Part shown: in pieces, positions 22,449 to 40,877 of the stretch | How the letters are laid out: the number at the start of each line of letters is the position of its first letter | Position numbering within the stretch: the stretch's first letter is position 1 | Origin: an uncultured Poribacteria bacterium | GTDB lineage: Bacteria > Poribacteria > WGA-4E > WGA-3G | NCBI GenBank assembly: GCA_951813565.1 | Contig: OX638351.1 | Location: forward strand, 3,168,001-3,232,000 | Direction: 5' to 3' | DNA: 64,000 bases | Program-made: the position numbers and the translations under genes | Notes under the pieces: generated by a model | Databases searched by the model: none | What the model was told of the DNA's origin: nothing | What the model saw: only the letters and a program-made list of their open reading frames with translations

Positions 22449-22604
22449 TAGTAAAACCTATAATTAATGGGACACTTCTGTAGCGCAAACTTTTAGTTTG
22501 CGTCTCATAAGGCACAAACTAAAAGTTTGTGCTACAACTTCTATTGTCCATTATCTTTCCAAGACAAGTTTATCAAAGTGTCCCAATAATTTCAAAGTTC
22601 ACTA
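22449..22604. mobile_element. MITE with IS630-like ends carrying a REP doublet (156 bp)
   Basis: TA flanks, ends TAGTAAAACC...AGTTCACTA, internal GGGACACTT/AAGTGTCCC inverted repeat. An identical copy with an insertion is at 39916-40356. Confidence 0.88.
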
Positions 22605-26734: not shown

Positions 26735-29323
26735 ATGAGATTAGACAGATTCACAATTAAAGCACAAGAGGCACTACAATCAGCACAAACTTTAGCCAGC
26801 GAGGCGCAAAATCCAGAACTTGGGGTTGAGCATCTGATGCTTTCCCTCATTAAACAGACAGACGGAATAGTAGCACCAATTTTTCAAAAATTAGGGGTAG
26901 ATATTCAAGGGATTATATCGGCACTTGAGGATGTCGTACAGAAGGCGCCCAAAGTACAAGGAGTAAGTTCGGAACTACACATATCAAGACCTTTACAATC
27001 TGTTCTTGAGACTGCTCTCAAAGAAGCAATAACACTCAAAGATGAATATGTCAGCACAGAACACCTCTTAATCGCCTGTGCAGAATCAAAAAAGAGTGAA
27101 GTCGGGCAAATTCTACGCGATGTTGGTGTAACGAAGGATAAAATCCTCAAAGCTCTCGTAGATATCCGCGGCACACAACGAATAACCGATCAGAATCCCG
27201 AGGACAAATATCAAGCACTCACCCGATTTGGCAGGGAACTCACGCAAGAATCGATGTCTGGTAAGCTTGATCCGGTTATTGGGAGAGATGATGAAATTCG
27301 ACGTGTGATGCAAGTGCTATCCCGTAGACGCAAAAATAATCCTGTGCTTATCGGTGAGCCTGGCGTCGGAAAAACTGCGATTGTAGAGGGATTAGCACAA
27401 CGCATCGCGGATGGTGACGTGCCAGAAAGTCTGCGGGAAAAACGGCTCATCGCTCTTGATTTAGGAGCGCTGATCGCGGGCAGTAAATATCGTGGGGAAT
27501 TTGAGGACAGACTAAAAGCGGTCCTCGCTGATGTAGAACAGGCAGAAGGACAGGTTATCCTCTTTATTGACGAACTTCATACCATTGTTGGTGCAGGTGC
27601 TGCAGAAGGGGCGGTTGATGCGTCTAATATGCTCAAACCGGCATTAGCACGAGGCGAATTGCGATGCATCGGTGCAACAACGCTTGATGAATACCGTAAA
27701 CACATTGAAAAAGATGCTGCCTTAGAACGACGATTCCAACCTGTTCAGGTACAAGAACCGTCCGTTGAGGATACGATAGCGATTCTACGCGGGTTAAAGG
27801 AACGGTACGAAACACATCACGGCGTTCAAATCCAGGACAATGCAATCGTATCTGCTGCCACCCTCTCAAAACGGTATATTTCTGATCGCTTCCTGCCAGA
27901 TAAAGCAGTGGATTTAGTGGATGAAGCAGCAGCTCGGCTGCGGATTGAGATTGACAGTGTACCAGAACAAATTGATGAAGTAGAACGGCGCATTATCCAA
28001 CTCCAAATGGAACAGCAAGCACTGGAAAAAGAGGATGATGGCGTATCTAAACAACGTTTAGAAAAATTGAACGCTGAACTTGCAGAACTAAAAGAGAAAG
28101 TAGATGCCCTCAAAGCAGGTTGGCAAAATGAAAAAGCAAACCTGATACAGATTCGAGAGTTGATGGAACAAATTGAGGCACTCCGCATTGAATCTGAGCA
28201 AGCAAAGCGCAGCGGTAACCTTGCAAAAGCGTCTGAACTTGAATACGGCAAAATACCTACGCTTGAATCGCAACTCAAAACTTTGCGAGAGGCGGTTGAA
28301 ACAGATGCTAATGGCACACAAATGCTAAAAGAACGTATGAGCGCAGAAGATATTGCTGAGATTGTAGCTAAATGGACCGGTATTCCTGTTTATCGCCTCA
28401 TGGAAGGCGAAACACAAAAACTGCTTCACATGGAAGAACGGTTGTGTGAACAGGTTATTGGACAGAATGAGGCGGTTTCCGCTGTCTCCAACGCGATTCG
28501 CCGTTCCCGTGTTGGTCTTGGGGATCCGGATCGACCACTCGGTTCATTTCTCTTTATGGGACCTACCGGTGTCGGCAAAACACATCTTGCTAAATCGCTT
28601 TCAGAATTTCTATTTGACGATGTAAACGCCATCGTCCGCATTGATATGAGCGAATACATGGAGAAACATACCGTTTCTCGACTCATTGGCGCACCACCGG
28701 GGTACGTAGGCTATGACGAAGGTGGGCAGTTAACCGAAGCGGTCAGACGACATCCATATTGTGTGATTCTGCTTGATGAAGTTGAAAAAGCTCATCCAGA
28801 AGTATTCAATGTTCTACTCCAAATGCTTGATGATGGTAGAATGACAGATGGACAAGGACACACGGTAGATTTTAAGAATACGGTTGTTATCATGACATCT
28901 AACATTGGTAGCCAGTGGATTAGCGACACACATCTCGCTACAGAAGAAATTCGGCGGAAGGTAATGGATGCTTTACAAGCACACTTCCCACCAGAATTCC
29001 TGAATCGTGTGGATGATCTAATTATTTTTGATCGTCTTGGAATTGATGAATTGAAGCAAATTGTAACGCTTGAACTTTCCAAACTAAGTGTCCAATTTGC
29101 TGAAAAGGATATGACACTAACGTTAACCGAATCGGCAAAAGAAGAATTGGTTAAACGCGGATTTGATGCAGTATATGGCGCCCGTCCGCTTCGACGGACG
29201 CTTCAACGGGATATTCTCAACCCGTTGGCTATTGATATGCTTGAAGGCAACTTCCATGATGGCGATGTCATTGTTGCAGATTTTGCAAGTGAAAAGTTCA
29301 TTTTCAGCGTTGAAAAAGTTTGA
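26735..29323 (+). CDS. clpB: Chaperone ClpB
   Basis: Two AAA+ modules ([16 protein letters not shown]), coiled-coil M domain, GAPPGYVGY. Confidence 0.97.
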
Positions 29324-29428
29324 AATGGATTGAAATCTATCCAAATTTCATGGTATTCTATTATATAATCCAAGTTGCCACCTATGTAGCACAAACTTTT
29401 AGTTTGTGCCTATGAATACGCAAACTGA

Positions 29429-29543
29429 ATGAAGATAAATTTTTAAATTCGGTAATTTTCTGTCCGCACAAGGCAGGTGTCCACTTCTGCTGGCGAGGTT
29501 TCCTAACCTCGCTAAATTACCGATTTATTTTATTAAACTTCAT
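29429..29543. mobile_element. ATGAAG...CTTCAT MITE inserted in a REP hairpin loop (115 bp)
   Basis: Terminal ATGAAG/CTTCAT plus subterminal TCGGTAATTT/AAATTACCGA. Interrupts the hairpin CGCAAACT-GAA-AGTTTGCG. Confidence 0.85.
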
Positions 29544-29666
29544 AAAGTTTGCGCTACGATATGTCACAAATAATGAACTTTTCTCGAATTAAAAATGGCG
29601 TCTGCAGGTCTAAAATCTTATAGGTAGCAACTTGGATTATATACTTGAATTCACGGAGAAATAACG

Positions 29667-29918
29667 GTGGAACACCCAAACTGGACAAAAGACGATTCCC
29701 GCAGAGCCAAGCATATCTGGGCAGAGTACCAAAAACAACACGATATTACTGAACGGATCGGGCAGACAGCTGGGATTGATCCGAAAAGTGGCAGGATTTG
29801 GTTCGGGGACTCTGCCCTTGAGATTGTCCAGCAACGTCTTGCTGAAGGATTGACTTCCCCTCTTTTCTTTGAGCGAGTCGGTTATGCCTCCTACTTACGT
29901 AAGGGTGGACGTCGATGA
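29667..29918 (+). CDS. Small hypothetical protein paired with an aspartyl protease
   Basis: GGAG RBS; ATGA overlap with the next gene. Confidence 0.7.
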   Translation: MEHPNWTKDDSRRAKHIWAEYQKQHDITERIGQTAGIDPKSGRIWFGDSALEIVQQRLAEGLTSPLFFERVGYASYLRKGGRR

Positions 29919-30277
29919 TTCACGGATCAATATCGGATGATGGAGTCCCAATAATCACACTTTCTATCGTAGGACAAGAATGTACCGCAACTATAGATAC
30001 AGGCTTCAATGGATATCTGGAACTACCTGAAACTCTACGAAATACGTTGAATCCCCAATATATTGGTCTAGTGATTTCAGTATTAGCAGGCGGGCAAACA
30101 ATTGAAGAAGAACTTTATCAAGTCAATTTTCTTTTTGATGGAAGGATAATTCCTGCCGAGGCAACATTCGTTGTTAATGGTGAGATTCTTATAGGGCCTC
30201 ATTTGCTTCGTGAGTATCGTCTGGAGATTGATTTTGTCAGACGAACCGTTGTATTAGAAAAGGTTATTATCGGATAA
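29915..30277 (+). CDS. Clan AA (retropepsin-like) aspartic protease
   Basis: IDTGFNG catalytic motif and ILIG motif. Confidence 0.85.
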   Translation: MIHGSISDDGVPIITLSIVGQECTATIDTGFNGYLELPETLRNTLNPQYIGLVISVLAGGQTIEEELYQVNFLFDGRIIPAEATFVVNGEILIGPHLLREYRLEIDFVRRTVVLEKVIIG

Positions 30278-30325
30278 TTGTTTAGTAGTTACCAAAACAA
30301 AATGCATCGAACCACATACTGGATA

Positions 30326-30853
30326 TTATTTTCTCAACCGCTCAACAATTTTGTCAACAATCCCCTCAGCGCGGTCACGAATCTGTTCCTGTGTAAGACT
30401 CTGGATCGGATGTGTAACCGTAAGTGGTTCTAATTCATTGTATCCGAGCACACGCGCCTGCACCTTTCCTGCTGCAAAAAATACCTCTGTACAGATCGTC
30501 ACACTCGGTACGCCGCGCTCCTCTAAAACACTTCCATCGTGCATACTGCACGATATACAAGAGCCTCAGTCGGCGAGACCTTCAATGACGAAATCTGTCT
30601 GATCGGCAAGGTCATTGAGCAGCTCAGTCGGAGCTGGACGCGCAAATGTCGGTTTCTTGACACGGACCACCTCAGCAATGTCAAACCGTTCGCGCATTAA
30701 TTCTTCAACGCGATCAAGAAAAATATCACTACCATTTTTGGTGATATCCAGCAAACCCATCACTTTTCCATCAAAGGTATCAAGTCGTGGAGCCAAAAAT
30801 TTTTCATCTGCATCACTTTGGGAGGTAGGATCAAGTAAAGTAACGTTTGCCAT
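30326..30853 (-). CDS. UGSC-family selenoprotein (TGA read as Sec), 175 aa
   Basis: Two ORF-track fragments share one frame across a single TGA at 30566-30568: EGLAD-U-GSCISCSMHD. Confidence 0.85.
30536..30554 (-). promoter_or_regulatory. Candidate bacterial SECIS hairpin
   Basis: ATCGTGCA-GTA-TGCACGAT is a perfect 8-bp stem starting 11 nt after the UGA; the loop begins with G. Confidence 0.65.
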
Positions 30854-30865
30854 AGTCAAAATCTC

Positions 30866-31198
30866 CTATGTGGTTGAACCGGACGTTTCCAACTGTATCT
30901 GTTGCGACTTCGCCATCGCATCTTCTGCTTCCTGAATCATACCTTTACGCTGGTAACACATAGATAAACTGGTGTAAACAAGCGGATCATTCGGATTGAT
31001 TTCAATCGCTTTTTCGACTGCTTCAATGGCTTCATCGTATTGACTAAGCCGTTCATACGCATGTCCCAATCCGAGATACCCCTCAATATATTCTGGATAC
31101 GATTCAATAAGTTCCTTAAAAGCGTTAACAGCAGCTTCCAGGTCATTTTCTGCGAAATGAGTCAGTGCTACATCGTAAAGTTGTTCTTGTGTTGACAT
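30866..31198 (-). CDS. Small TPR protein
   Basis: GYLGLGHAYERL...AIEINPNDPLVYTSLS. Confidence 0.85.
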   Translation of the reverse strand: MSTQEQLYDVALTHFAENDLEAAVNAFKELIESYPEYIEGYLGLGHAYERLSQYDEAIEAVEKAIEINPNDPLVYTSLSMCYQRKGMIQEAEDAMAKSQQIQLETSGSTT

Positions 31199-31269
31199 AT
31201 TTTCTTCCTTACAAAATTTGAAAACATTTTAACAAAAACCGAAGTGAAAGTCAATTGGATTTTAGGATA

Positions 31270-31427
31270 ACGTGAGTTTGATAATTAACTGGACAGGCAA
31301 AAATTGAACAGAGAACGGGCATATTTGCTGAAAAAAATCGTTATTTTGGTGTTTTTAACCCTAAATCCCCTTATCAGAGGACTTTAAGAGGAAATGTAGA
31401 AATCCTAACTATTTATCAAACTCACGT
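31270..31427. mobile_element. MITE with IS982-like (AC...GT) ends (158 bp)
   Basis: ACGTGAGTTTGATAA ... TTATCAAACTCACGT perfect terminal repeat, with a 7-bp direct repeat TAGGATA on both sides. Confidence 0.87.
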
Positions 31428-31641
31428 TAGGATAAGATGTGTAAATATTTGGCATATAGGTTCAATTTACGAAGAACCCTTCGCGTTTTCAACTGTAAGC
31501 GCGAGTCTCTGTGCCCGCCCGTTGTTTCCGGACTTCAAACATAGCGTGGGATTGCATTCAGAAAACCTAAAACTGAATGTCTTTACTTAATTTTAAAAAT
31601 TATTGACAAAAAGTATTGAAATCTGGTATCATATTTTCTAA

Positions 31642-32070
31642 GTGTATTGCTACGATTACCCGCGCCCTTCAGTGACTATTGATATTGTGTTGTTGACGGA
31701 TGCTTTCCCGCATCCCAAAGTCTTGTTAATTCGCCGTAAGAATCCTCCGTTCAAAGACCTGTGGGCACTTCCAGGCGGGTTTTTGGAAATGGATGAAACA
31801 CTTGAGGAGAGCGCGTGCCGCGAGTTACACGAAGAAACGAACATCTCAGATGTCCAACTGACACAAGTAGGCACTTTCGGACGCCCTGACCGTGACCCAC
31901 GCGGGCGCGTTATTACTGTTGCCTACGTTGGAATCATCGGATCGGAACAACAAGAAGCTATAGCAGGTTCCGATGCTGCTGAAGTTTCGTGGTTTCCGAC
32001 ATTAGATATGCCACAACTTGCCTTTGACCATAGTGAGATAATAAAGAAGGCGTTAGAAGGATTTAAATGA
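31642..32070 (+). CDS. NUDIX hydrolase
   Basis: WALPGGF..ETLEESACRELHEET Nudix box, RDPRGRV, LAFDH. Confidence 0.92.
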   Translation: MYCYDYPRPSVTIDIVLLTDAFPHPKVLLIRRKNPPFKDLWALPGGFLEMDETLEESACRELHEETNISDVQLTQVGTFGRPDRDPRGRVITVAYVGIIGSEQQEAIAGSDAAEVSWFPTLDMPQLAFDHSEIIKKALEGFK

Positions 32071-32399
32071 AACACTACGGTTTGACCTTAAACCTGAAAG
32101 ATGATCCTACAATTATTGAACAGTATAAGGCATATCACAGAGATGCCTGGCCAGAGACATTGGCTGGCCTAAAAGCGGTCGGAATTACAAAAATGAATAT
32201 CTATCTGTTAGGTCGGCGTTTGTTTATGGCGATGGAAACCGTGGATACGTTTGATATAGAACGTGATTTTCCGCGCTACCTTGAAGAACATCCGAAGTGC
32301 AAAGAATGGGATGAATTAATGCGTACTTTTCAGGAACCTGTTGAAGAGGCACAAGCTGGTGAGTGGTGGGCAGAGATGGAACCTGTCTTTGAGTTATAA
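32067..32399 (+). CDS. L-rhamnose mutarotase family protein
   Basis: IEQYKAYH..WPE, GITKMNIY, WAEMEPVF. Confidence 0.85.
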   Translation: MKHYGLTLNLKDDPTIIEQYKAYHRDAWPETLAGLKAVGITKMNIYLLGRRLFMAMETVDTFDIERDFPRYLEEHPKCKEWDELMRTFQEPVEEAQAGEWWAEMEPVFEL

Positions 32400-32478
32400 A
32401 GAGGCAAAAGTGAGAACATGTGAGGGTATCCGCAATCTTGTTTGTGTGATTTTATAGGTTAAGAAATAGGATTGAAAA

Positions 32479-33396
32479 ATGACAATCAGTTACGACTTCA
32501 TGGCATTCAGTGGTAGGCTTTCAGAAAGTAGCTGGACTCTTGGGATGAAAGCGATTCAAGGCGAAGTGCCTCTGGATATCGTGATACCGAGTTTGCAAAC
32601 ATCATCAGATTACGACGAAAAGGATATAATTGGGGTTTTGACAAAAGAAGGTATCTCGCGGGAAAGTTCGGATGTGATGGAACTTTATCGATACCTTCGA
32701 CAGCTTAACCCAAAATCTAATCAAGCGTTCGGATACAATGAGGTTGCGATCCGTAATATTCACACCCGTCTAAATTTGCTGAAGGTTGATGAAGAACTTC
32801 GCGTTCAAATTACCTATACCGAACGTAAAGAGAACTATATTGCGGCTTCATATAACATAAAATTGTTAGGCATCTTCCAGATTACAACTGCCGATCTGCC
32901 AGTTCCTCCTGCTCCTGATATTACTGAAAACATTGATATAGATGTTTCTGAAGCGGATACACAAGATATTCCAGAACAACAGGAGAAACCCATAATTCCA
33001 AAAGATTTTCCTCAAACGGATCAAGAGATACCGGTTTATAAAACGACGAATACCTTGGAAAAATTAATCACTTTTACTCGAACGTTACAGTCTGAACTGA
33101 AAGAGATAACAGAAAATCTTGCCTTAATGACTGAAAGAGTACGTTTACTGGAAGAAGAACGTCAGCGTTACCGCGGACAAGAAGACCTATTACAGGAGAT
33201 TCTCAAACGGCTTAACCATCTGGAAAGTTTTGAAAGGCGGATTGACTTCCTTGAAGATGACCGTCATCAACTTGACGACCTAAAACAAACTTTAATTGCA
33301 TATTTCAGAACGTCAAACCGACAAACACGGGCATTGCTTAATGAAGTTAGTGATGAAACGGATGACACCAATTCGATAAGTGAGACATCTCAATAA
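32479..33396 (+). CDS. Hypothetical protein with C-terminal coiled coil
   Basis: Long ORF with heptad-rich Leu/Glu C-terminal third; no recognised motif. Confidence 0.7.
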   Translation: MTISYDFMAFSGRLSESSWTLGMKAIQGEVPLDIVIPSLQTSSDYDEKDIIGVLTKEGISRESSDVMELYRYLRQLNPKSNQAFGYNEVAIRNIHTRLNLLKVDEELRVQITYTERKENYIAASYNIKLLGIFQITTADLPVPPAPDITENIDIDVSEADTQDIPEQQEKPIIPKDFPQTDQEIPVYKTTNTLEKLITFTRTLQSELKEITENLALMTERVRLLEEERQRYRGQEDLLQEILKRLNHLESFERRIDFLEDDRHQLDDLKQTLIAYFRTSNRQTRALLNEVSDETDDTNSISETSQ

Positions 33397-33430
33397 AATA
33401 GAAGTGATATAAAGAAAGGATGACCGTTTC

Positions 33431-34231
33431 ATGATGAAAATAGGCACAATGTCTTTGAATGTCAAAGGCACCACAGCAACCGATTTTGCACAAATCGTAT
33501 ACGACCTCGGCTTTGACGTAATTGAACTCCACTCCAGTGCATTTGAATCTACCGATGCAACCTATCTACGGGAACTAAAGATGAACCTGATGCGGAAAGG
33601 TTTACCATTAGGTTACATCGGCATCAGCAATAACTTTGGTAAACCTGTTGCCGAACACCCCGAACAGATTGCGCATATTAAGAAGTGGATTGATATTGCC
33701 TCATTTATGAGTTGTCCTATAGTCCGGGTATTTGCAGCTTATGTGCCTGCAGATTGTGATGATGAGGAAACATTGTGGCCTCCAATGATTGAAGGCTTCA
33801 AAGAAGTTGCAGAATACGGCTATGAATCAGGAATTCTTGTTGGTCTGCAAAATCATAACCACAACAATGTTACTCGCGATGGGGATGCTGTTTTACGTGC
33901 GTTAAATGAAACTGACCATCCCTATTTCACGCATATCTTAGATACGGGACAGTACGCAGGTTCTCCTGGTGCCAGTGGACATCGTGGTTCGCCACATCCG
34001 GACTATGACTGCTACACGAGTATTGAACAAACAGCACCCCACGCTGTTTACGTCCGTACCAAGTTTTATGAGATTGATAGCGGTGTAGAGGAGTGGTTGG
34101 ACTATACGCGGGTTTTGGACATTTTGCGAGGTGTTGGATATAACGGATGCCTTTCAGTTGTCTATGAAGGTCAATCGGATCCGATTGAATCAATGCGTAA
34201 AGCAAGAAGTTATCTGGAATCCTTATTGTAG
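33431..34231 (+). CDS. Sugar phosphate isomerase/epimerase family protein
   Basis: GFDVIEL, VRVFA, LQNHNH, LDTGQ, GYNGCLSVVYEG. Confidence 0.85.
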   Translation: MMKIGTMSLNVKGTTATDFAQIVYDLGFDVIELHSSAFESTDATYLRELKMNLMRKGLPLGYIGISNNFGKPVAEHPEQIAHIKKWIDIASFMSCPIVRVFAAYVPADCDDEETLWPPMIEGFKEVAEYGYESGILVGLQNHNHNNVTRDGDAVLRALNETDHPYFTHILDTGQYAGSPGASGHRGSPHPDYDCYTSIEQTAPHAVYVRTKFYEIDSGVEEWLDYTRVLDILRGVGYNGCLSVVYEGQSDPIESMRKARSYLESLL

Positions 34232-34239
34232 AGGGTAAG

Positions 34240-35343
34240 ATGAAAACACGTGCCGCTGTTATGTATGAACATAATCAACCTGTGGTTGTTGAGGAACTGG
34301 AGTTAGAAGAACCGAAAGCAAACGAAGTTCTTGTCCGCACTGCTGCAAGTGGTGTCTGCCATTCCGATCTATCAGTCGTCACGGGTGCTATCTACTACGA
34401 TGCGGCTGTTGTGCTTGGACATGAAGGTGCGGGTGTAATTGAACATATTGGAACCGATGTGACAGATTTTCAGGTGGGAGATCATGTAATTCTCTCTTTC
34501 GTTAGTTATTGCGGTGATTGCCACATGTGTCAGATGGAAAAAGTCTGTTTGTGCGAAAGTTACAATGTACCGCGCGGGTTTCAATTAGATGGTACCTACC
34601 GTCTGTATAACAAATCAGGTGAAGGTATCTTACAGATGGCGCGGATTGCGACTATGTCGGAATATATGGTCGTACCGCAACAAAACCTTATAAAAATAGA
34701 CGATCACTATTCGTTAGAGAAGGCTGCGCTTGTGGGATGCGGTGTAACAACAGGTGTTGGTGCCGTCCTCAATACAGCAAAAGTAGAACCCGGTAGTTCC
34801 GTAGCAGTTATCGGCACAGGTGGAGTAGGTTTAAACGCTATTCAAGGTGCTGTGCTTGCGCAAGCGGAAAAGATTATCGCTGTTGATATTGCTGAGAAGA
34901 AACTCAACTTTGCCAAAAGTTTTGGAGCAACAGATGTTGTCAATGCTGCCGAAGTGGATCCGGTTGAGACTGTTCGTGAGTTGACAGATGGCCGCGGTGT
35001 AGATTATGCATTTGAGGTAATCGGGAATCCAGACACTATTGTGCAAGCATATCTTATGGTGCGAGCGGCTGGCACTGCTGTTATTGTCGGAATGGCACAC
35101 CATCAAAAGGAATTCAGCATTCCAGCACAACACTTTGTCGCAACTGAAAGACAGATTATCGGTTCATTTTACGGTTCATGTCAACCGCGAGTGGATATGC
35201 CAGAACTTCTCAATCTCTATACGGAAGGGAAGTTAAAGTTAGATGAGCTAATTACAAAGCACTATTCGCTTGATCAGATTAATGAGGCGTTTGCGGATAT
35301 GGAAGCTGGCGAAAATGCACGCGGAGTTATCCGCTTTAATTGA
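34240..35343 (+). CDS. Zn-dependent alcohol dehydrogenase (class III-like)
   Basis: GVCHSD, GHEGAG, CGDCHMC, GCGVTTGVGA, GTGGVG. Confidence 0.92.
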   Translation: MKTRAAVMYEHNQPVVVEELELEEPKANEVLVRTAASGVCHSDLSVVTGAIYYDAAVVLGHEGAGVIEHIGTDVTDFQVGDHVILSFVSYCGDCHMCQMEKVCLCESYNVPRGFQLDGTYRLYNKSGEGILQMARIATMSEYMVVPQQNLIKIDDHYSLEKAALVGCGVTTGVGAVLNTAKVEPGSSVAVIGTGGVGLNAIQGAVLAQAEKIIAVDIAEKKLNFAKSFGATDVVNAAEVDPVETVRELTDGRGVDYAFEVIGNPDTIVQAYLMVRAAGTAVIVGMAHHQKEFSIPAQHFVATERQIIGSFYGSCQPRVDMPELLNLYTEGKLKLDELITKHYSLDQINEAFADMEAGENARGVIRFN

Positions 35344-35399
35344 CCCTTTTCACCATAAGATAACATTTCCTACCGTAGGTTAGGTAGAACAAAGTGAAA

Positions 35400-35873
35400 C
35401 CCATAAATCAACGCTATGAGTGCCCTTATGGCATTAAACCAAATCAACGCAGCATGCGCCAAATCAAGAAATCAACGGTATGAATCATGGCGAATGCTAA
35501 AAGCGCATTCGTCTTTAGTCATTCACCGGGTCCGAATGCCCTTTGGCATTCCCCGTATGGCATGCTGCGGGTGTTAATTTAAGGAAACATGACCACCTAT
35601 TCCGACACGGTAGGAGCGGTTTCTAACCGCTCCGTATTATCCGAAAGGCTCTTGTGGGAGGCGTTTTCAACGCCGATATATCGCGCGGACAAAGCGCTCC
35701 CACAAAGATGTCCTGCCGATTAGTGGCTACCAACTCATGTAAGTCCGATTGCGGTGAATCAACGCCAAATACGACAAGTGCCATACGCGTGCTTGGCGTT
35801 GATTTGGCTTTTGGTATTTGTCGGGAAAACGCATCTACCGAGGGTGAAAATCCACTAAATTGACAGTTATGGG
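35400..35873. mobile_element. Composite CCCATA...TATGGG element containing REPs and nested hairpin units
   Basis: Ends match those of 37038-37343 in the opposite orientation. Flanked by a 17-20 bp direct repeat GGTAGAAYAAAGTGAAA(CCC). Confidence 0.7.
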
Positions 35874-35976
35874 GGTAGAATAAAGTGAAACCCAACAAAC
35901 TATCTTCTGTTTGTAACCGCGCAATTCACAGCACCTCTTCCAGTTTAATCGACAACTGATAGCTAAAAACTGAAAT

Positions 35977-36753
35977 ATGAAAACCATCCATACCTCCGTC
36001 CGTGAACAGTTTAGCCAACATGCCGACTATTATGCCCAAAGCAGCGCGCATGCCAAAGGCGATACCCTTGAGGTTATCCTTGACTTTGCAAATCCGAAAG
36101 GGACGGAGAAAACTTTGGATATTGCGACAGGCACAGGTTTTACAGCGTTTGCGCTTGCACCCAAGGTAGCACAAGTGGTCGCTACGGATCTCACGCCTGA
36201 GATGGTCACTAAGGCATCCGAGTTAGCACAGGAACAAGCGATAGAAAATGTTACGTTTTCCGTTGCCGCAGCAGAATCTTTACCGTTTGCTACTGCTTCA
36301 TTAGATTTAGTGACCTGTCGACTTGCTCCTCACCACTTTCAAGATGTTCCCAAATTCTTGAGTGAGGTCCATCGTGTTTTACGAACAGAGGGACTTTTTT
36401 GCCTTGTAGATTCCGTTTCCCCTGAATCAAAAAAATTAATAGCATGGCAGAACCGCGTGGAAAAATTACGCGACGATTCTCATGTGTATGGGTACCCACC
36501 GTCTCAGTGGGATGCGATGATTTCAGATGCCGGTTTTGATATTGAGAGGACAGCACACACGCGAAATGCGCTGATGTCGTTTTTGTGGTGGGTGCGTCCA
36601 CAGAAAAATCCGCCGGAAGTGGTGAAGGAAATCCGTGACGCGTTCGCGCAACTCTCGCCTGATGACGCGAAAAAGTATTATACAGTTAAACCCGCAGATG
36701 ACGATTTCTATTTTTCGTGGCCGATGTATGCTGTTAAAGCAAGAAAAGGATAG
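35977..36753 (+). CDS. Class I SAM-dependent methyltransferase
   Basis: LDIATGTG, AESLPF, APHHF, HRVL. Confidence 0.9.
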   Translation: MKTIHTSVREQFSQHADYYAQSSAHAKGDTLEVILDFANPKGTEKTLDIATGTGFTAFALAPKVAQVVATDLTPEMVTKASELAQEQAIENVTFSVAAAESLPFATASLDLVTCRLAPHHFQDVPKFLSEVHRVLRTEGLFCLVDSVSPESKKLIAWQNRVEKLRDDSHVYGYPPSQWDAMISDAGFDIERTAHTRNALMSFLWWVRPQKNPPEVVKEIRDAFAQLSPDDAKKYYTVKPADDDFYFSWPMYAVKARKG

Positions 36754-37037
36754 AACATCGGTATGTAAAATTCTTGTCATTGACCTTTGCTTTTCTTGTA
36801 GGAGGAGTTTTTAACCCCAATTTCTCAATTGCAACAAGCGTATCGGGCATTGACTTGGATTTCTTCTGTAGGAGCGACCTCCTGGTCCCGACCCGACGAA
36901 TGTCATACGCTCATTTGACGTTGATTCGTAGTGTATCAATAGACATTATAATGATTTAATCGGAAGTGTCTGATAATGCCAAGACCGAAAGATAGGCAAA
37001 AAGTGGATGGCGTGTCCGTCGGGTAGAGCTTGCGACA

Positions 37038-37343
37038 CCCATAACTGTCAATTTAGTGGTCCGCCACCCTGGTAGGCGCGTTTTGATGAAGATTAATTTT
37101 TTAATTCGGTATTTTTCCGTCAGCACAAGGCAAGTGTCCACTTCTGCTGGCGAGGTTTCCTAACCTCGCCAAATTACCGATTTATTTCTTAAACTTCATG
37201 TAAACGCGCTGATAATTCAGAATTTTGCTGAAAATTACACCATTTTTGCCGTAATTACCGCAAAAGTCGAGAAAATTGCGTAAGTCCTGCTTAAGTTTAC
37301 ATCCGCTGAATGCCAACAGACATTCATAGCGTTGATTTATGGG
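37038..37343. mobile_element. Second CCCATA...TATGGG composite element
   Basis: CCCATAACTGTCAATTTAGTGG is the reverse complement of 35852-35873. The other end is homologous to 35400-35583. Confidence 0.7.
37086..37199. mobile_element. ATGAAG...CTTCAT MITE in a REP hairpin loop (114 bp)
   Basis: Near-identical to 29429-29543. Interrupts GCGCGTTT-TGT-AAACGCGC. Confidence 0.85.
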
Positions 37344-37734
37344 TTTCGCTCCGCTCTACCCAACGGACGATACTATTATAAAGAATTAACGCATGTGATA
37401 AAATGCGTCAGAAATATAGAAAACTAAATAACCCTGTCTAACCCCTATGACCATTGACTTCGTGAAAACAAACGCACACACATTTTACATCAGTAGATCT
37501 TTTCTTATTCTTCTAAACCTGATAATATCAATACCAAATACCTATAAAAAAACCATTTAATGAACGATTTTATTCTATTTTGTATTGAAAATAAGGTGTC
37601 TTTTTCACGTAATGGGGATCTATCAATAAGCATTTTTTAGCATTTTCATAACCGCGTATTGAGAGAACTTTGATAGGTAGTGGCTTCTGAGTGCTTTTGA
37701 GAAATCCCAGAATAGAAACTAACCAAACTTACAA

Positions 37735-37848
37735 CTAATTAGTTATAATATCTATTACTGTGATGTTCAGGGTAGCAGCTTCTGCTATATTCAAAACAAC
37801 AAATAAGGAAACCAAAAAAAATATACTAATTAGGCTCAATCGTTTCAT
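37735..37848 (-). pseudogene. Truncated secreted-protein gene (signal peptide only)
   Basis: AAGGAG RBS and MKRLSLISIFFLVSLFVVLNIAEA signal peptide, then stops after 37 codons in AT-rich DNA. Confidence 0.45.
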
Positions 37849-38078
37849 TATTCTAACTCCTTTATTTGGAATACTGTTTAGTTGCCATGGCAATAAGCGG
37901 TATTCCGAAATCGACGTACTTGACCTGGGGTAGTTTATCACTCTTTTGTGTTGGAACTGAGTTTACCACAGAAATTCCATGGGGTCGCAGCACGCTTGAA
38001 ACTTATAACTTAAGCGTAAGTATCACAACTTGAAGAAAAAAAGTCAATTTTATTCTGATTTTACCTCAAGAATTTGTC

Positions 38079-38107
38079 TTGATTTATATTGCGTATATTG
38101 GTATAAT
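38079..38107 (+). promoter_or_regulatory. sigma-70-type promoter for the nadD cluster
   Basis: TTGATT-17 nt-TATAAT. Confidence 0.55.
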
Positions 38108-38236
38108 TAAGGATCAGAAAAATAGTTTCATATCGAATCCGTGTGTTCATGTTTACCCATTTCGGGACACACTTCAGTTAACAATTGTGGCCTATGATAT
38201 GCATATCTTCTCGGTCAGCAAACAAACAAGAAGCAG

Positions 38237-38818
38237 ATGAAAATCGCAATTATGGGGGGGACTTTTAACCCAATCCATTACGCGCATCTGCTGAGTGCCG
38301 AGCAAGTGCGTGAAGGTTTAGGTTACGATAAAATTCTGTTTGTCCCCGCTGCGCGACCACCTCATAAATCACAACCGGATATGGTTTCTGCTGAGCACAG
38401 ATATCAGATGGTGTTGTTAGCAACAGCAGACAACCCGTATTTTGAGGTATCTCGAATTGAATTGGATCGCGATGGTCCATCATACACAATTCAGACAATA
38501 AAAGAATTACGACTCCGCTACGGTAAAACAACAAAACTTGCATGGATTATCGGTGCGGATTCGTTAATTGAGTATAAAATTTGGAAAGATTTCGACGAAG
38601 TGTTAAAGCAGTGTACTATGATTGTTACAACACGTCCCAATTACGATTTACAGCGTGTTCCCGCCGAAATCCGCAATCGTGTTATAACGTTTCAGATAAC
38701 CGGTTTCGATATGTCGGCAACCGAGATTCGGGAACGTATTCGGGAAAACAACTCTATCCGATACCTTGTTCCTAAAAAAGTTGTTATTTATATTGAACAG
38801 CATCAGTTATACCGATAA
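38237..38818 (+). CDS. nadD: Nicotinate-nucleotide adenylyltransferase
   Basis: GGTFNPIHYAH, PPHK, SYT, IIGADS, SATEIR. Confidence 0.95.
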   Translation: MKIAIMGGTFNPIHYAHLLSAEQVREGLGYDKILFVPAARPPHKSQPDMVSAEHRYQMVLLATADNPYFEVSRIELDRDGPSYTIQTIKELRLRYGKTTKLAWIIGADSLIEYKIWKDFDEVLKQCTMIVTTRPNYDLQRVPAEIRNRVITFQITGFDMSATEIRERIRENNSIRYLVPKKVVIYIEQHQLYR

Positions 38819-38902
38819 AAGGATATTCGTAAAGTGTGGTCTGTTAGAGCAAGTGGGCGAATTCTGTCCATACAGATCGTATTAGTTTGAAAAGGAGTTA
38901 AT

Positions 38903-39148
38903 ATGAAGCTGAAATGTAGTCTCTGCGGCACTGCTTACGAATTTATTTATGTAAAAGGTAAGCCTTTACCTCCAAATTTTCCGTTTTGTAGTAACCGATG
39001 TAAGTCGATAGATTTAGGCAAATGGCTTAACGAGGAATATCGTATTAGCATGCCGCTGCCAGAAACAGATATATTAACAGAAATCTTTACCGAATTTCAG
39101 GAAGAGACACTTGCAAGGATACTTGGAGACGATATAGAATCTGAATAG
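38903..39148 (+). CDS. yacG: DNA gyrase inhibitor YacG-like zinc finger
   Basis: CSLC...PFCSNRCKSIDLGKWLNEEYRI. Confidence 0.88.
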   Translation: MKLKCSLCGTAYEFIYVKGKPLPPNFPFCSNRCKSIDLGKWLNEEYRISMPLPETDILTEIFTEFQEETLARILGDDIESE

Positions 39149-39152
39149 GCTT

Positions 39153-39869
39153 ATGTCTCCTGATTTCACACATTCAAGAGTTGATTTGCTCTATAGATCG
39201 CAGCGCAAAAAGAAGATAGACATGACGTTGAGTAAACCTTTTTCAGTAAACAGAAAATTAAAATCAGCGTTTCCTACATTAACGGAACTCAGGAAGCACT
39301 CAAAATCGATAGAAATTCAGCGTTACCTTTCGGAAAAACTGGCATCGGAACGTTTTGATCACGTCCTTTCTGTGCAGGAGACATCAGTAGCATTAGCACG
39401 ATGTCATAATGCGGATGTCTGGAAAACCAATTTAGCGGCTCTTTTACATGATGTAGTAAAATGGATGAGTGACGATCAATTGTACACTGCCGCAGCACGT
39501 TATGAAATAGAACTCGACCCGATTGAGAAGATAATGCCTGCCTTATTACATGCGATTGTCGGTGTAAAGTACGCAATCGAATTATTCGATGTGACCGATT
39601 TAGATGTGCTTGAAGCGATTCGGAATCACACGACAGGCAACGCATCAATGGGAATAACGGCAAAATTAATATATGTAGCAGATTTTGCGGAGCCGACACG
39701 AGAATACAAAGAAGCTGCGCAGGTAAGAAAATTAGCAGAAACACAGTTAGAACAGGCAGTCCATAACGTAGCGCGTTACAAGATAGATTTTCTGCTTCAA
39801 AAAGGATGGATAATTCATCCGAATACCATCCATACCTACAACAGTACGTTGGCAAATATTACGTTTTGA
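39153..39869 (+). CDS. yqeK: HD-domain Ap4A hydrolase YqeK (start uncertain)
   Basis: RFDHVLSV, ALLHDVVK, LLHA, AIRNHTTG, YVADFAEP; nadD/rsfS context. Confidence 0.9.
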   Translation: MSPDFTHSRVDLLYRSQRKKKIDMTLSKPFSVNRKLKSAFPTLTELRKHSKSIEIQRYLSEKLASERFDHVLSVQETSVALARCHNADVWKTNLAALLHDVVKWMSDDQLYTAAARYEIELDPIEKIMPALLHAIVGVKYAIELFDVTDLDVLEAIRNHTTGNASMGITAKLIYVADFAEPTREYKEAAQVRKLAETQLEQAVHNVARYKIDFLLQKGWIIHPNTIHTYNSTLANITF

Positions 39870-39915
39870 GTTTCAAGTTGACTTTAGCATGGTCTAAGTG
39901 TTTAACTCAAACTTA

Positions 39916-40356
39916 TAGTAAAACCTATAATTAATGGGACACTTCTGTAGCGCAAACTTTATGAAGTTTAAGAAAATAAATTCGGTATTTTCCTTAGTCC
40001 CGTAGGGACGATATGTTTGTTGCCATGTGCTGCAAGGACATATCGTCCCTACGGGACTAAGAGAAGAGATAACACCTCCTGCTATAAACATATCGTCCCT
40101 ACCAAATCAACGCCAAATGCGCCAAATCAACGGTATGAATGCCTTTTGGCATTCCCCGTATGGCATTTGTCGGGACTGAAGAGCGTTTGACATATCCAGA
40201 ATATACCTAACAAGAAATTACCGAATTAAAAAATTAATCTTCATTTAGTTTGCGTCTCATAAGGCACAAACTAAAAGTTTGTGCTACAACTTCTATTGTC
40301 CATTATCTTTCCAAGACAAGTTTATCAAAGTGTCCCAATAATTTCAAAGTTCACTA
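39916..40356. mobile_element. IS630-like MITE copy containing nested insertions
   Basis: Identical to 22449-22604 apart from a 284-bp insert (39961-40244) plus 1 bp. Confidence 0.9.
39961..40244. mobile_element. ATGAAG...CTTCAT MITE with different cargo (284 bp)
   Basis: Same ends as the 29429 and 37086 copies. The interior carries GTAGGGACGATATG REPs and nested hairpin units. Confidence 0.88.
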
Positions 40357-40433
40357 TAAATAATACGCAATAGCCTATAACTGTATCTCACGAAGCGTTT
40401 ATGCACGACCTCATTTATTAGGAGACCTAACCG

Positions 40434-40877
40434 ATGGAAACAAATAATACATTAGAAATTGTAAAAGCAGCTGCATCGGCGGCTGTGAGTCGACGCGCAC
40501 AGAATCCTGTGATTCTTGATCTTCGCGAATTAGATTGTTTTACCGACTATTTCGCGATTTTCAGCGGTATCTCCGATGTACAAGTTGAAGGTATTTCAGA
40601 AGCAATCTTAGAAGAACTTGAAGTAAACTGGGATCAGCAACCGTGGCATCGGGAAGGGGCTCAAAAAGCGGATTGGATACTGTTAGACTATGTTGATTTC
40701 GTCGTACACATCTTTTTGGACGAAAGACGTTCCTACTACAGTCTTGAGCGTCTATGGGCAGAAGCTCCGCATGTGAAACTACCGGAAATGGACAGGATTC
40801 CCTTATTAGATGAACCAGAGGAATATGATGAAGATGAAATGGTGTTGGGTCTTGTTTCAGCAGATGAAGAGAACTAA
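40434..40877 (+). CDS. rsfS: Ribosome silencing factor RsfS
   Basis: ILDLR, TDYF, WILLDYVDFVVHIF, YYSLERLW. Confidence 0.95.
   Translation: METNNTLEIVKAAASAAVSRRAQNPVILDLRELDCFTDYFAIFSGISDVQVEGISEAILEELEVNWDQQPWHREGAQKADWILLDYVDFVVHIFLDERRSYYSLERLWAEAPHVKLPEMDRIPLLDEPEEYDEDEMVLGLVSADEEN

Follow-up and report, generated by a model that had tools for sequence, protein, structure and literature searches.

The hallmark of IS630/Tc1/mariner elements is specificity for TA, duplicated as 2 bp on insertion, and in their transposases the second Asp and the Glu lie about 34-35 residues apart. A duplication of constant length is taken as reflecting a fixed distance between two active sites. REP-targeting ISs, namely ISPsy8 (IS3), ISRm22, ISPa11/ISPpu9/ISPpu10/IS621 (IS110) and IS1397/ISKpn1, were described as having a fixed insertion point in REPs, on the symmetry axis for ISPsy8 and ISRm22, with one REP consensus each and a fixed repeat of 3, 6, 0 or 2 bp; the families named there are IS3, IS110, IS4, IS256 and IS5, and not IS630 (PMC1525189). 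IS1272 (IS1182 family) takes inverted-repeat targets of varied sequence and size, for which a cruciform model including a drawn pathway attacking the loops was proposed, and it excises the whole stem-loop with zero duplication (PMC5678879). REPINs with their RAYT are small non-autonomous units carrying GTAG REPs, and Correia and RUP are IS630/Tc1-mariner MITEs (PMC2817692). Within the latter family, ISY100 was found to insert almost exclusively at TA, which is duplicated, by cut-and-paste chemistry with the 5' ends cut two bases inside (PMC2170065).

The elements described here are real MITEs, non-autonomous derivatives of an IS630/mariner-type IS: they are short, non-coding and multi-copy, have ends in common with 1,241-bp autonomous IS630 elements, and are inserted on the axis of hairpins of about 20 unrelated stem types. 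Three of them lie in the window, the whole 64,000-nt stretch that was analysed of the genome (labelled G000) of an uncultured Poribacteria bacterium, a sponge symbiont; plain coordinates are positions in it (Table 1). They were found where the initial annotation had placed them. All three start with ATGAAG and finish with CTTCAT, 18-21 of 29 terminal bases being complementary, and the end pattern has six matches in the window against 0.01 expected. Each splits a GTAG-headed 8-bp stem and leaves two loop bases per side, repeating the middle loop base as had been claimed: A at 29428 and 29544, G at 37085 and 37200, T at 39960 and 40245. The MITE ends, those in the window included, are 24-28/29 identical to the cognate autonomous ends (26/29 and 27/29 for copy 1); the window ends are 16-20/29 identical to those of a sister IS630. 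The ends of the element hosting copy 1 are similar to those of a different IS of the same genome. Subtraction of element 3 and one base from its filled allele restores the annotated empty allele with zero mismatches, and a joint of the host repeat that skips 285 bases was also present in contigs of four out of four runs. The empty stem-loop has a predicted -8.3 kcal/mol as DNA, equalled by 0/200 shuffles. Rfam gave zero matches in 29000-40600.

Table 1. Features of the three insertion sites and of the empty allele in the window
Feature	Position	Strand	Length	Description
MITE copy 1	29429..29543		115 bp	29-bp imperfect TIRs ATGAAG...CGGTAAT
Copy 1 target hairpin	29419..29557	minus (GTAG head)		8-bp stem, 3-base loop
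Hairpin inside copy 1	29492..29512	+		4-base loop
Copy 1 host element	29372..29633			another small inverted-repeat element, enclosing a REP doublet
MITE copy 2	37086..37199		114 bp	
Copy 2 target hairpin	37072..37209	+		GTAG head, unrelated 8-bp stem
Hairpin inside copy 2	37149..37169	+		4-base loop
MITE copy 3	39961..40244		284 bp	interior differs: GTAG hairpin pair 39997-40009 and 40045-40057
Copy 3 target hairpin	39947..40254	+		GTAG head, 8-bp stem
Filled allele of host repeat	39916..40356		441 bp	156 + 284 + 1
Empty allele of host repeat	22449..22604		156 bp	target hairpin 22480-22502, loop TTT

Across G000, 120 ends were collected, making up 51 complete copies and 18 orphan ends, in a census that was hand-edited (four weak ends in, two chance hits out). 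The copies do not lie mostly outside hairpins, an outcome that the initial annotation had named as evidence against itself: 46 of the 51 sit on a hairpin axis, pairing at at least 7/8 stem positions with both arms kept. An identical base stands on both sides in 41 copies and a complementary base in eight, and two are chimeric; the repeated base is T in 15, A in 12, C in eight and G in six. When the 29-nt empty sites of the 41 were reconstructed on the assumption of a 1-bp duplication, 13 had an exact match elsewhere in G000; a zero-duplication reading was rejected, as reconstruction without duplication gave a match for 0/41. Such empty alleles are paralogous repeat copies rather than the corresponding locus of another strain. 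Orthologous empty alleles of copy 1 and of the copy at C1:4783603 were not found in four runs each, in which contigs enter these copies from unique flanks or break at the repeats, and no relative within the genus spans site 2. The copies are mostly 110-116 bp long, TA|TA junctions number 0/51, and 0/51 lie inside ORFs of at least 150 aa, a harmlessness in REP-rich genomes for which hairpin targeting would account. The ATGAAG start was seen in 0/21 multi-copy G000 repeat families whose ends were checked. Two look-alike families, with ends TTTGGAC and YGTCAA, were set aside as cases of TIR asymmetry, only TTTGGAC having been compared with its long copies.

The transposase presumed to act in trans, to be sought in long ORF-enclosing copies according to the initial annotation, was identified in related genomes as an intact IS630-family enzyme within the 1,241-bp elements; a matching enzyme was not found in G000, where an unguided search combining a stem, a repeated base and TIRs returned the two look-alike families and no autonomous copy. 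One autonomous partner, L036, itself lies inside a REP loop with G repeated. The TIRs flanking the gene are 22-29/29 complementary in full-length copies. The protein scores 174.6 bits against the NCBIfam IS630 profile NF033545 (cut-off 100) and matches PF13358 and PF13565, its best annotated plasmid matches are IS630 proteins (24-28% identical), and D191, D273 and E334 are invariant in 89 sequences. A PDB sequence search gave zero matches; the top seven Foldseek rows for the predicted fold (pLDDT 81, pTM 0.57) are Mos1, the best being 5hoo at E 1e-7. With its N-terminal HTH and DDE domain above the IS630 cut-off, the Mos1-closest fold, about 29-bp TIRs and trans-moved MITEs, the system resembles IS630/Tc1-mariner. 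The transposase is unrelated to those of IS1397 or IS621, which the initial annotation had named. By protein the family is IS630; by target it is a non-canonical member. The spacing from second Asp to Glu is 59-60 residues in 13/13 Poribacteria enzymes versus 35 in the TA-duplicating sister, and 59-75 in 52 metagenome relatives out of the 53 scored (14 unscored). The clade carries an insertion of ~25 residues at this place, common to the distant metagenome relatives and lacking in the TA-specific sister, which is about 40% identical; the reach of this subgroup rests on 80 metagenome loci.

Among 67 unique junctions of autonomous copies, 54 pair at at least 6/8 positions, as hairpin tips do, 50 repeat one base, and TA|TA occurs once; the sister junctions read CTA|TAG in 12/12 and are paired in 1/12. 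The junctions without a repeated base (17/67 autonomous, 10/51 in G000) may reflect later recombination or palindrome correction. Over the 20 stem types, the information content at positions -5 to -10 does not exceed 0.11 bit, and in a set made up of all 38 poorly paired sites and a single representative of each type the mean pairing is 4.45/8 against 2.35 +/- 0.21 for shuffled sites, whose maximum in 2000 shuffles was 3.12. This pairing without consensus supports a structure-dependent target choice, as had been suggested from the window, but shape alone is insufficient, because four abundant 3-base-loop families of G000 (43, 34, 32 and 29 copies), two 4-base-loop families (215 and 67 copies) and the abundant 5-base-loop families checked hold zero insertions. 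In 2 Mb of G000, 231 of 43,092 YT-NNN-AR sites have such a stem. The choice of hairpins is filtered by a weak sequence preference, for pyrimidines at stem positions -3 and -4, which adjoin the loop.

What is new here is that the 1-bp duplication is not fixed. Each side keeps two loop bases. The claimed duplication holds for G000 but not as a constant length: it is probably a side effect of loops of 3 bases, and loops of 5 bases likely lose one. Judged from paralogous empty sites, the duplication would equal four minus the loop length, that is +1 for 3-base, 0 for 4-base and -1 for 5-base loops. In genome G022, empty GAATGAC/GTCATTC hairpins have five-base loops in 17/17 cases (ATTTA 13, ATTAG 2, ATTAA 2), and the eight filled sites read AT|TA (five), AT|AA (two) and AT|AG (one), with the middle base absent in all three variants. 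In G043 the filled site is TA|AT, and among the listed empty sites TAAAT accounts for 61/77, TAT and TAAT for none. Four-base loops seem to give zero duplication (L167, L375), and the sister target CC-TA-GG (+2) agrees with the same count. The GAATGCC sites of G022 could be 0 or -1, because that genome also has seven empty TAAT loops. The rule has four exceptions, all G022 junctions keeping 2 + 3 bases (L159, L254, L279, L285). A fixed 1-base stagger fits these 2|3 junctions better.

As IS630 derivatives, the elements are probably moved in trans by cut-and-paste, with the transposase likely capturing an extruded hairpin on each strand. Since 3-base loops gain one base and 5-base loops likely lose one, the enzyme probably takes its distance from the hairpin stem and does not read the TA used by its relatives. 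Cutting of the 5' ends two bases inside is assumed, carried over from ISY100. Each transposon end would be joined at a point lying two bases 5' of the 3' hairpin arm. The Mos1 target is bent by 147 degrees, with two bases 3' of each cut unpaired (PMC5481204), and by analogy two hairpin tips, belonging to a cruciform or to transiently single-stranded DNA, may replace the halves of such a bent target. Repair would fill a 1-base gap, seal a nick or trim a 1-base flap. The ~25-residue insertion, which lies between D273 and E334 as a loop rich in Pro and Lys, is a candidate cause of the altered target choice.

Unlike ISY100, this clade dispenses with TA, depends on a stem and would yield +1, 0 or -1. 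It shares with REP-targeting ISs the fixed insertion point, but its many stems are unrelated and its repeat length appears to track the loop; in place of an IS3 transposase, a 3-bp repeat and one REP consensus, an IS630 enzyme, a 1-bp repeat and many stems were found. IS1272 is similar in its targets but has a different transposase family, and here the stem-loop is entered at its tip and keeps both arms in 46/51 copies. In contrast to REPINs, the REP is both cargo and target, and both the ends and the enzyme belong to a DDE IS630. In a literature search, with most subscription journals outside its reach, no title or abstract dealt with IS630 elements inserting at hairpin tips or with 1-bp insertion by them.

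Alternatively, nothing is extruded: the enzyme binds a duplex palindrome that bends and melts easily, and the stagger of its cut is a fixed property of the enzyme variant, namely +1 for most of the Poribacteria, -1 for the branch of G022 and G043, 0 for the distant relatives and +2 for the sister. We regard this as unlikely, though a serious contender. It fits the confinement of -1 to G022 and G043, the enzymes of which group as sisters in the phylogeny (support 0.994), the 4-base loops with 2|3 junctions, the pyrimidine bias and the several hairpin families never used. It also fits the distant metagenome relatives, which show mostly zero duplication, T-N|N-A in 33/35 junctions on each side and weaker stems, 11/35 sites pairing at at least 6/8. 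A duplex-reading dimer, however, would yield a consensus rather than pairing without one, and nine identical copies in genome G005, with one identical enzyme, use at least three unrelated stems. Furthermore, +1 and -1 occur within one G022 MITE subfamily, 94-97% identical, in 3- and 5-base loops, with the caveat that more than one enzyme can move MITEs.

Tethering of an ordinary IS630 transposase by a host protein bound to REP hairpins is decidedly improbable. DNA polymerase I, gyrase and IHF bind REPs (PMC1525189) and 109 of 116 scored G000 ends adjoin two REP stem families, but single hairpins without a GTAG head are used with the same geometry (G000:C1:1046065, L002, L212, L229), and the base-exact centring and the loss of TA would be left unexplained. 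That a RAYT (Y1 HUH) enzyme moves the units as REPIN-like elements is barely credible, and largely refuted by the autonomous copies: most short copies have a central GTAG hairpin and G000 has 10 Y1_Tnp matches (Pfam), but the TIRs are nearly identical to those of DDE-encoding IS630 elements that lack a REP and hit the same targets. Equally implausible is that the flanking palindromes are the element's own or made by insertion, the repeated base being an asymmetric base of a longer TIR, as apparently imitated by the TTTGGAC-ended family; exact, complete empty hairpins refute this, stems vary among copies and each of the four bases is found repeated.

As a tentative proposal, capture of two hairpin tips by a shape-reading DDE transposase that measures off two bases at either stem, giving +1, 0 or -1 by loop, may define an IS630 subgroup that is widespread yet undescribed and whose catalytic domain carries 25-30 inserted residues. 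If true, one rule for the three outcomes would mean that the enzyme reads its target as a pair of separate hairpins; the elements would be direct genomic evidence that cruciforms undergo strand transfer in vivo, and would represent a natural integrase addressed by hairpins. Cruciform use by transposases would become directly testable, with the TA-specific sister as control and swap partner. IS and MITE finders demanding a duplicated target likely overlook or mis-bound this subgroup. The one long G000 copy (1,675 bp, C1:3538441-3540115) was rejected as mobiliser, since inside it lies a passenger that has TIRs of its own and a repeat of approximately 9 bp and which we take, by the look of its protein, to be of the IS1595 type.

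The initial annotation had described three elements in the window with ATGAAG...CTTCAT ends, each lying in a hairpin and flanked by one repeated base; all of this was found as claimed when the coordinates were re-examined, and the end pattern has six matches within the window, where chance would give 0.01. The 1-bp duplication is borne out by the empty allele, in that the 441-bp host of copy 3 becomes exactly the 156-bp empty host once the 284-bp element is taken out together with one base. A profile scan of the whole genome (G000), curated by hand (four weak ends added, two chance hits dropped), yielded 120 ends, which make up 51 complete copies, with 18 ends left as orphans. The flanks tabulated genome-wide repeat the pattern: 46 of 51 copies lie in hairpins, with stem pairing of at least 7/8 and two bases left on each side, and 41 carry one repeated base (T 15, A 12, C 8, G 6); in eight the junction bases are complementary, and in two unrelated flanks are joined. 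Exact empty sites exist in G000 for 13/41 assuming a 1-bp duplication and for 0/41 assuming zero. These 41 are not one composite propagated as a unit: counting interior, orientation and flank together, 37 different combinations occur, spread over 26 host-site types; among four pairs of identical copies, host site or orientation differs in three. The first target family has 94 GTAG-headed arms, of which 33 are filled, 51 empty with 3-base loops and 10 other; in the second, 72 such arms divide into 11, 37 and 24. None of the 51 complete copies lies inside an ORF of at least 150 aa. Of 40 relatives drawn from three families within one order, 28 have the MITE ends.

Coordinates of the elements, their hosts and related features
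Position	Feature	Detail
Window 29429-29543	MITE copy 1	
Window 37086-37199	MITE copy 2	
Window 39961-40244	MITE copy 3	
Window 39916-40356	filled host of copy 3	
Window 22449-22604	empty host; small inverted-repeat element carrying REPs	ends TATAGT
Window 29372-29633	target-hosting element, same kind	ends AAGTTGC
Window 37072-37286	target-hosting element, same kind	ends GACTTACGCA
Window 29492-29512, 37149-37169	internal hairpin of short MITEs	
Window 40083-40186	stacked short hairpin units inside copy 3	led by AATCAAC; 36 bases skipped in contigs of four runs
G000:C1:291278, 406269, 492509, 689950, 753393, 1371844, 1683855, 2121001; L054, L103, L108	complementary junction bases	
G000:C1:753393-753437	45-bp copy, internal deletion	barely more than two ends
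G000:C1:1875728, 2854858	lone sister-type ends	no adjoining transposase
G000:C1:3538441-3540115 (L001)	MITE with nested element	intact frame, ~9-bp repeat

The MITEs are almost certainly derived from IS630. A TA-duplicating IS630 of G000 (the sister) has ends of the same layout, with ATGAA at the tip and GGTAAT at 23-28, and its use as a query recovered an autonomous element of 1,241 bp (L036); it has ATGAAG ends, contains an intact frame of 384 aa and sits in a REP loop, the repeated base being G. Against the NCBIfam IS630 model its transposase reaches 174.6 bits (cut-off 100), and its predicted structure best matches Mos1. Matches at E 1e-40 or better occur in 35/151 genomes of the order, some via the sister only; the cognate transposase was not found in the G000 assembly (95% complete), where the best match is the sister at 38%. 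At 67 unique autonomous junctions, pairing reaches at least 6/8 in 54, and one base is repeated in 50, complementary in 8 and other in 9. Sister junctions read CTA|TAG in 12/12 and are paired in 1/12. ISY100 is described as inserting at TA, which is duplicated (PMC2170065), whereas TA|TA is found at 1/67 of the autonomous junctions.

A 1-bp duplication centred on the hairpin axis, as initially annotated, holds for 3-base loops but is not fixed, since 5-base loops likely read -1 and 4-base loops seem to read 0. Empty copies of one hairpin family in the related genome G022 all have 5-base loops (ATTTA 13, ATTAG 2, ATTAA 2; 17/17), and eight filled copies, from about 70/110 ends retrieved, read AT|TA 5, AT|AA 2 and AT|AG 1, each a known 5-base loop minus its middle base. 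The AT|AA and AT|AG junctions cannot be reconciled with any 1-bp duplication. A filled site of G043 reads TA|AT; TAAAT occurs in 61 of the 77 empties listed, among which no TAT or TAAT loop was found. An AAAT loop was filled as AA|AT. Because 3-, 4- and 5-base loops all retain two bases per side, a ruler is suggested in which the duplication would equal 4 minus the loop length, and the sister, whose TA lies between CC and GG, agrees with it too. The main rival is that enzymes differing in a fixed stagger act on duplex palindromes. The -1 outcome is seen only in two enzymes that are each other's sisters, 2 + 3 bases are kept at four junctions, seven empty TAAT loops make the GAATGCC sites of G022 ambiguous, and the empty sites are all paralogues, all of which count against the ruler; in G022, a single MITE subfamily (94-97% identical) is found in 3- and 5-base loops alike, the former giving +1. 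Hairpin capture together with a two-base ruler is on balance the reading that we favour from these genomic comparisons.

The proposal that target choice depends on structure was supported, although shape by itself is not enough. Pairing at >=6/8 is seen in 163 of the 201 unique junctions; these represent 20 stem types, and hardly any base is conserved across them except for a pyrimidine bias adjoining the loop. Since pairing within types is circular, the test took a single site from each type together with all of the 38 poor sites, and gave a mean of 4.45 against 2.35 +/- 0.21 shuffled. In G005, nine copies identical to one another are found in at least three unrelated stems. The weak consensus by itself would not locate hairpins, because only 231/43,092 matching sites have one. 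Against a purely shape-based reading, no insertion was found in any of the G000 3-base-loop families with 43, 34, 32 and 29 copies, or 4-base-loop families with 215 and 67.

The target in the Mos1 strand-transfer complex is reported to have a bend of 147 degrees, with the T and A that lie 3' of each cut left unpaired (PMC5481204). By analogy, a hairpin tip may present a similar arrangement, a duplex arm plus unpaired bases, on a single strand. Two tips, from cruciform or transiently single-stranded DNA, would occupy the two active sites, each would be cut two bases ahead of its 3' arm, and repair would then fill, seal or trim the centre.

A Pro/Lys-rich insertion separates D273 from E334 in hairpin-clade enzymes; the model shows it as an ordered loop (pLDDT about 83-87), and the D-to-E spacing is 59-60 in 13/13 versus 35 in four sisters. 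Among metagenome relatives (best 80 of 551 retained, 38-50% identity), 67 entered the phylogeny, and of these the long spacing occurs in 52/53 scored. Where both flanks are available (35 unique sites), T-N stands left in 33 and N-A right in 33, one base is repeated at 9 (about chance) and two at 3, and pairing of at least 6/8 is found at 11 versus 1.1 shuffled (maximum 6); at L375, an empty form on one metagenome contig indicates no duplication. In the FastTree phylogeny including these 67 relatives, all 13 enzymes from Poribacteria fall in a single clade (support 1.0) nested in the long-spacing group (0.906), and the TA sister branches outside that group. Since sampling followed likeness to the query and outgroups are partial, this branching does not fix the order of events.

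REP-targeting ISs described earlier belong to five families, all other than the IS630 of the present elements, and two of them insert on the symmetry axis with repeats of 3 and 6 bp (PMC1525189). Inverted repeats of unrelated sequence are also targets of IS1272, which removes them (PMC5678879), and Correia and RUP are given as IS630 MITEs (PMC2817692). IS630 goes unmentioned in the main text of a preprint about IS niches (10.1101/2025.07.22.666184), and no paper on IS630 insertion at hairpin tips or with 1 bp was found in the literature searched (largely open-access journals). The hairpin-tip elements are real, a variant of a known family, the variant itself being new.

Where the junction bases are complementary, the flank and TIR together come closer to a perfect palindrome, and inter-copy recombination or template-switch correction is the likely origin. 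The G055 enzyme (59% identical; L123-L133) targets mostly CC-TAC-GG hairpins, one base apart from the sister's CC-TA-GG. G000 is rich in ISs (DDE_Tnp_1 63, DDE_3 28 and Y1_Tnp 10 matches), and has a gene in more than 20 copies that we take, from the look of its protein, to be TnpB-like; the element nested in L001 is presumably IS1595-like on the same ground. TATAGT and AAGTTGC ends resemble those of other ISs in G000. The internal hairpin of short MITEs, also in G037 and G022 copies, has mostly the 4-base loop TCCT; in G037 this REP has 131 free copies with 3-base loops and 20 copies with four-base loops, the latter located mostly inside MITEs, where the hairpin could be an excision footprint or a guard against self-insertion.
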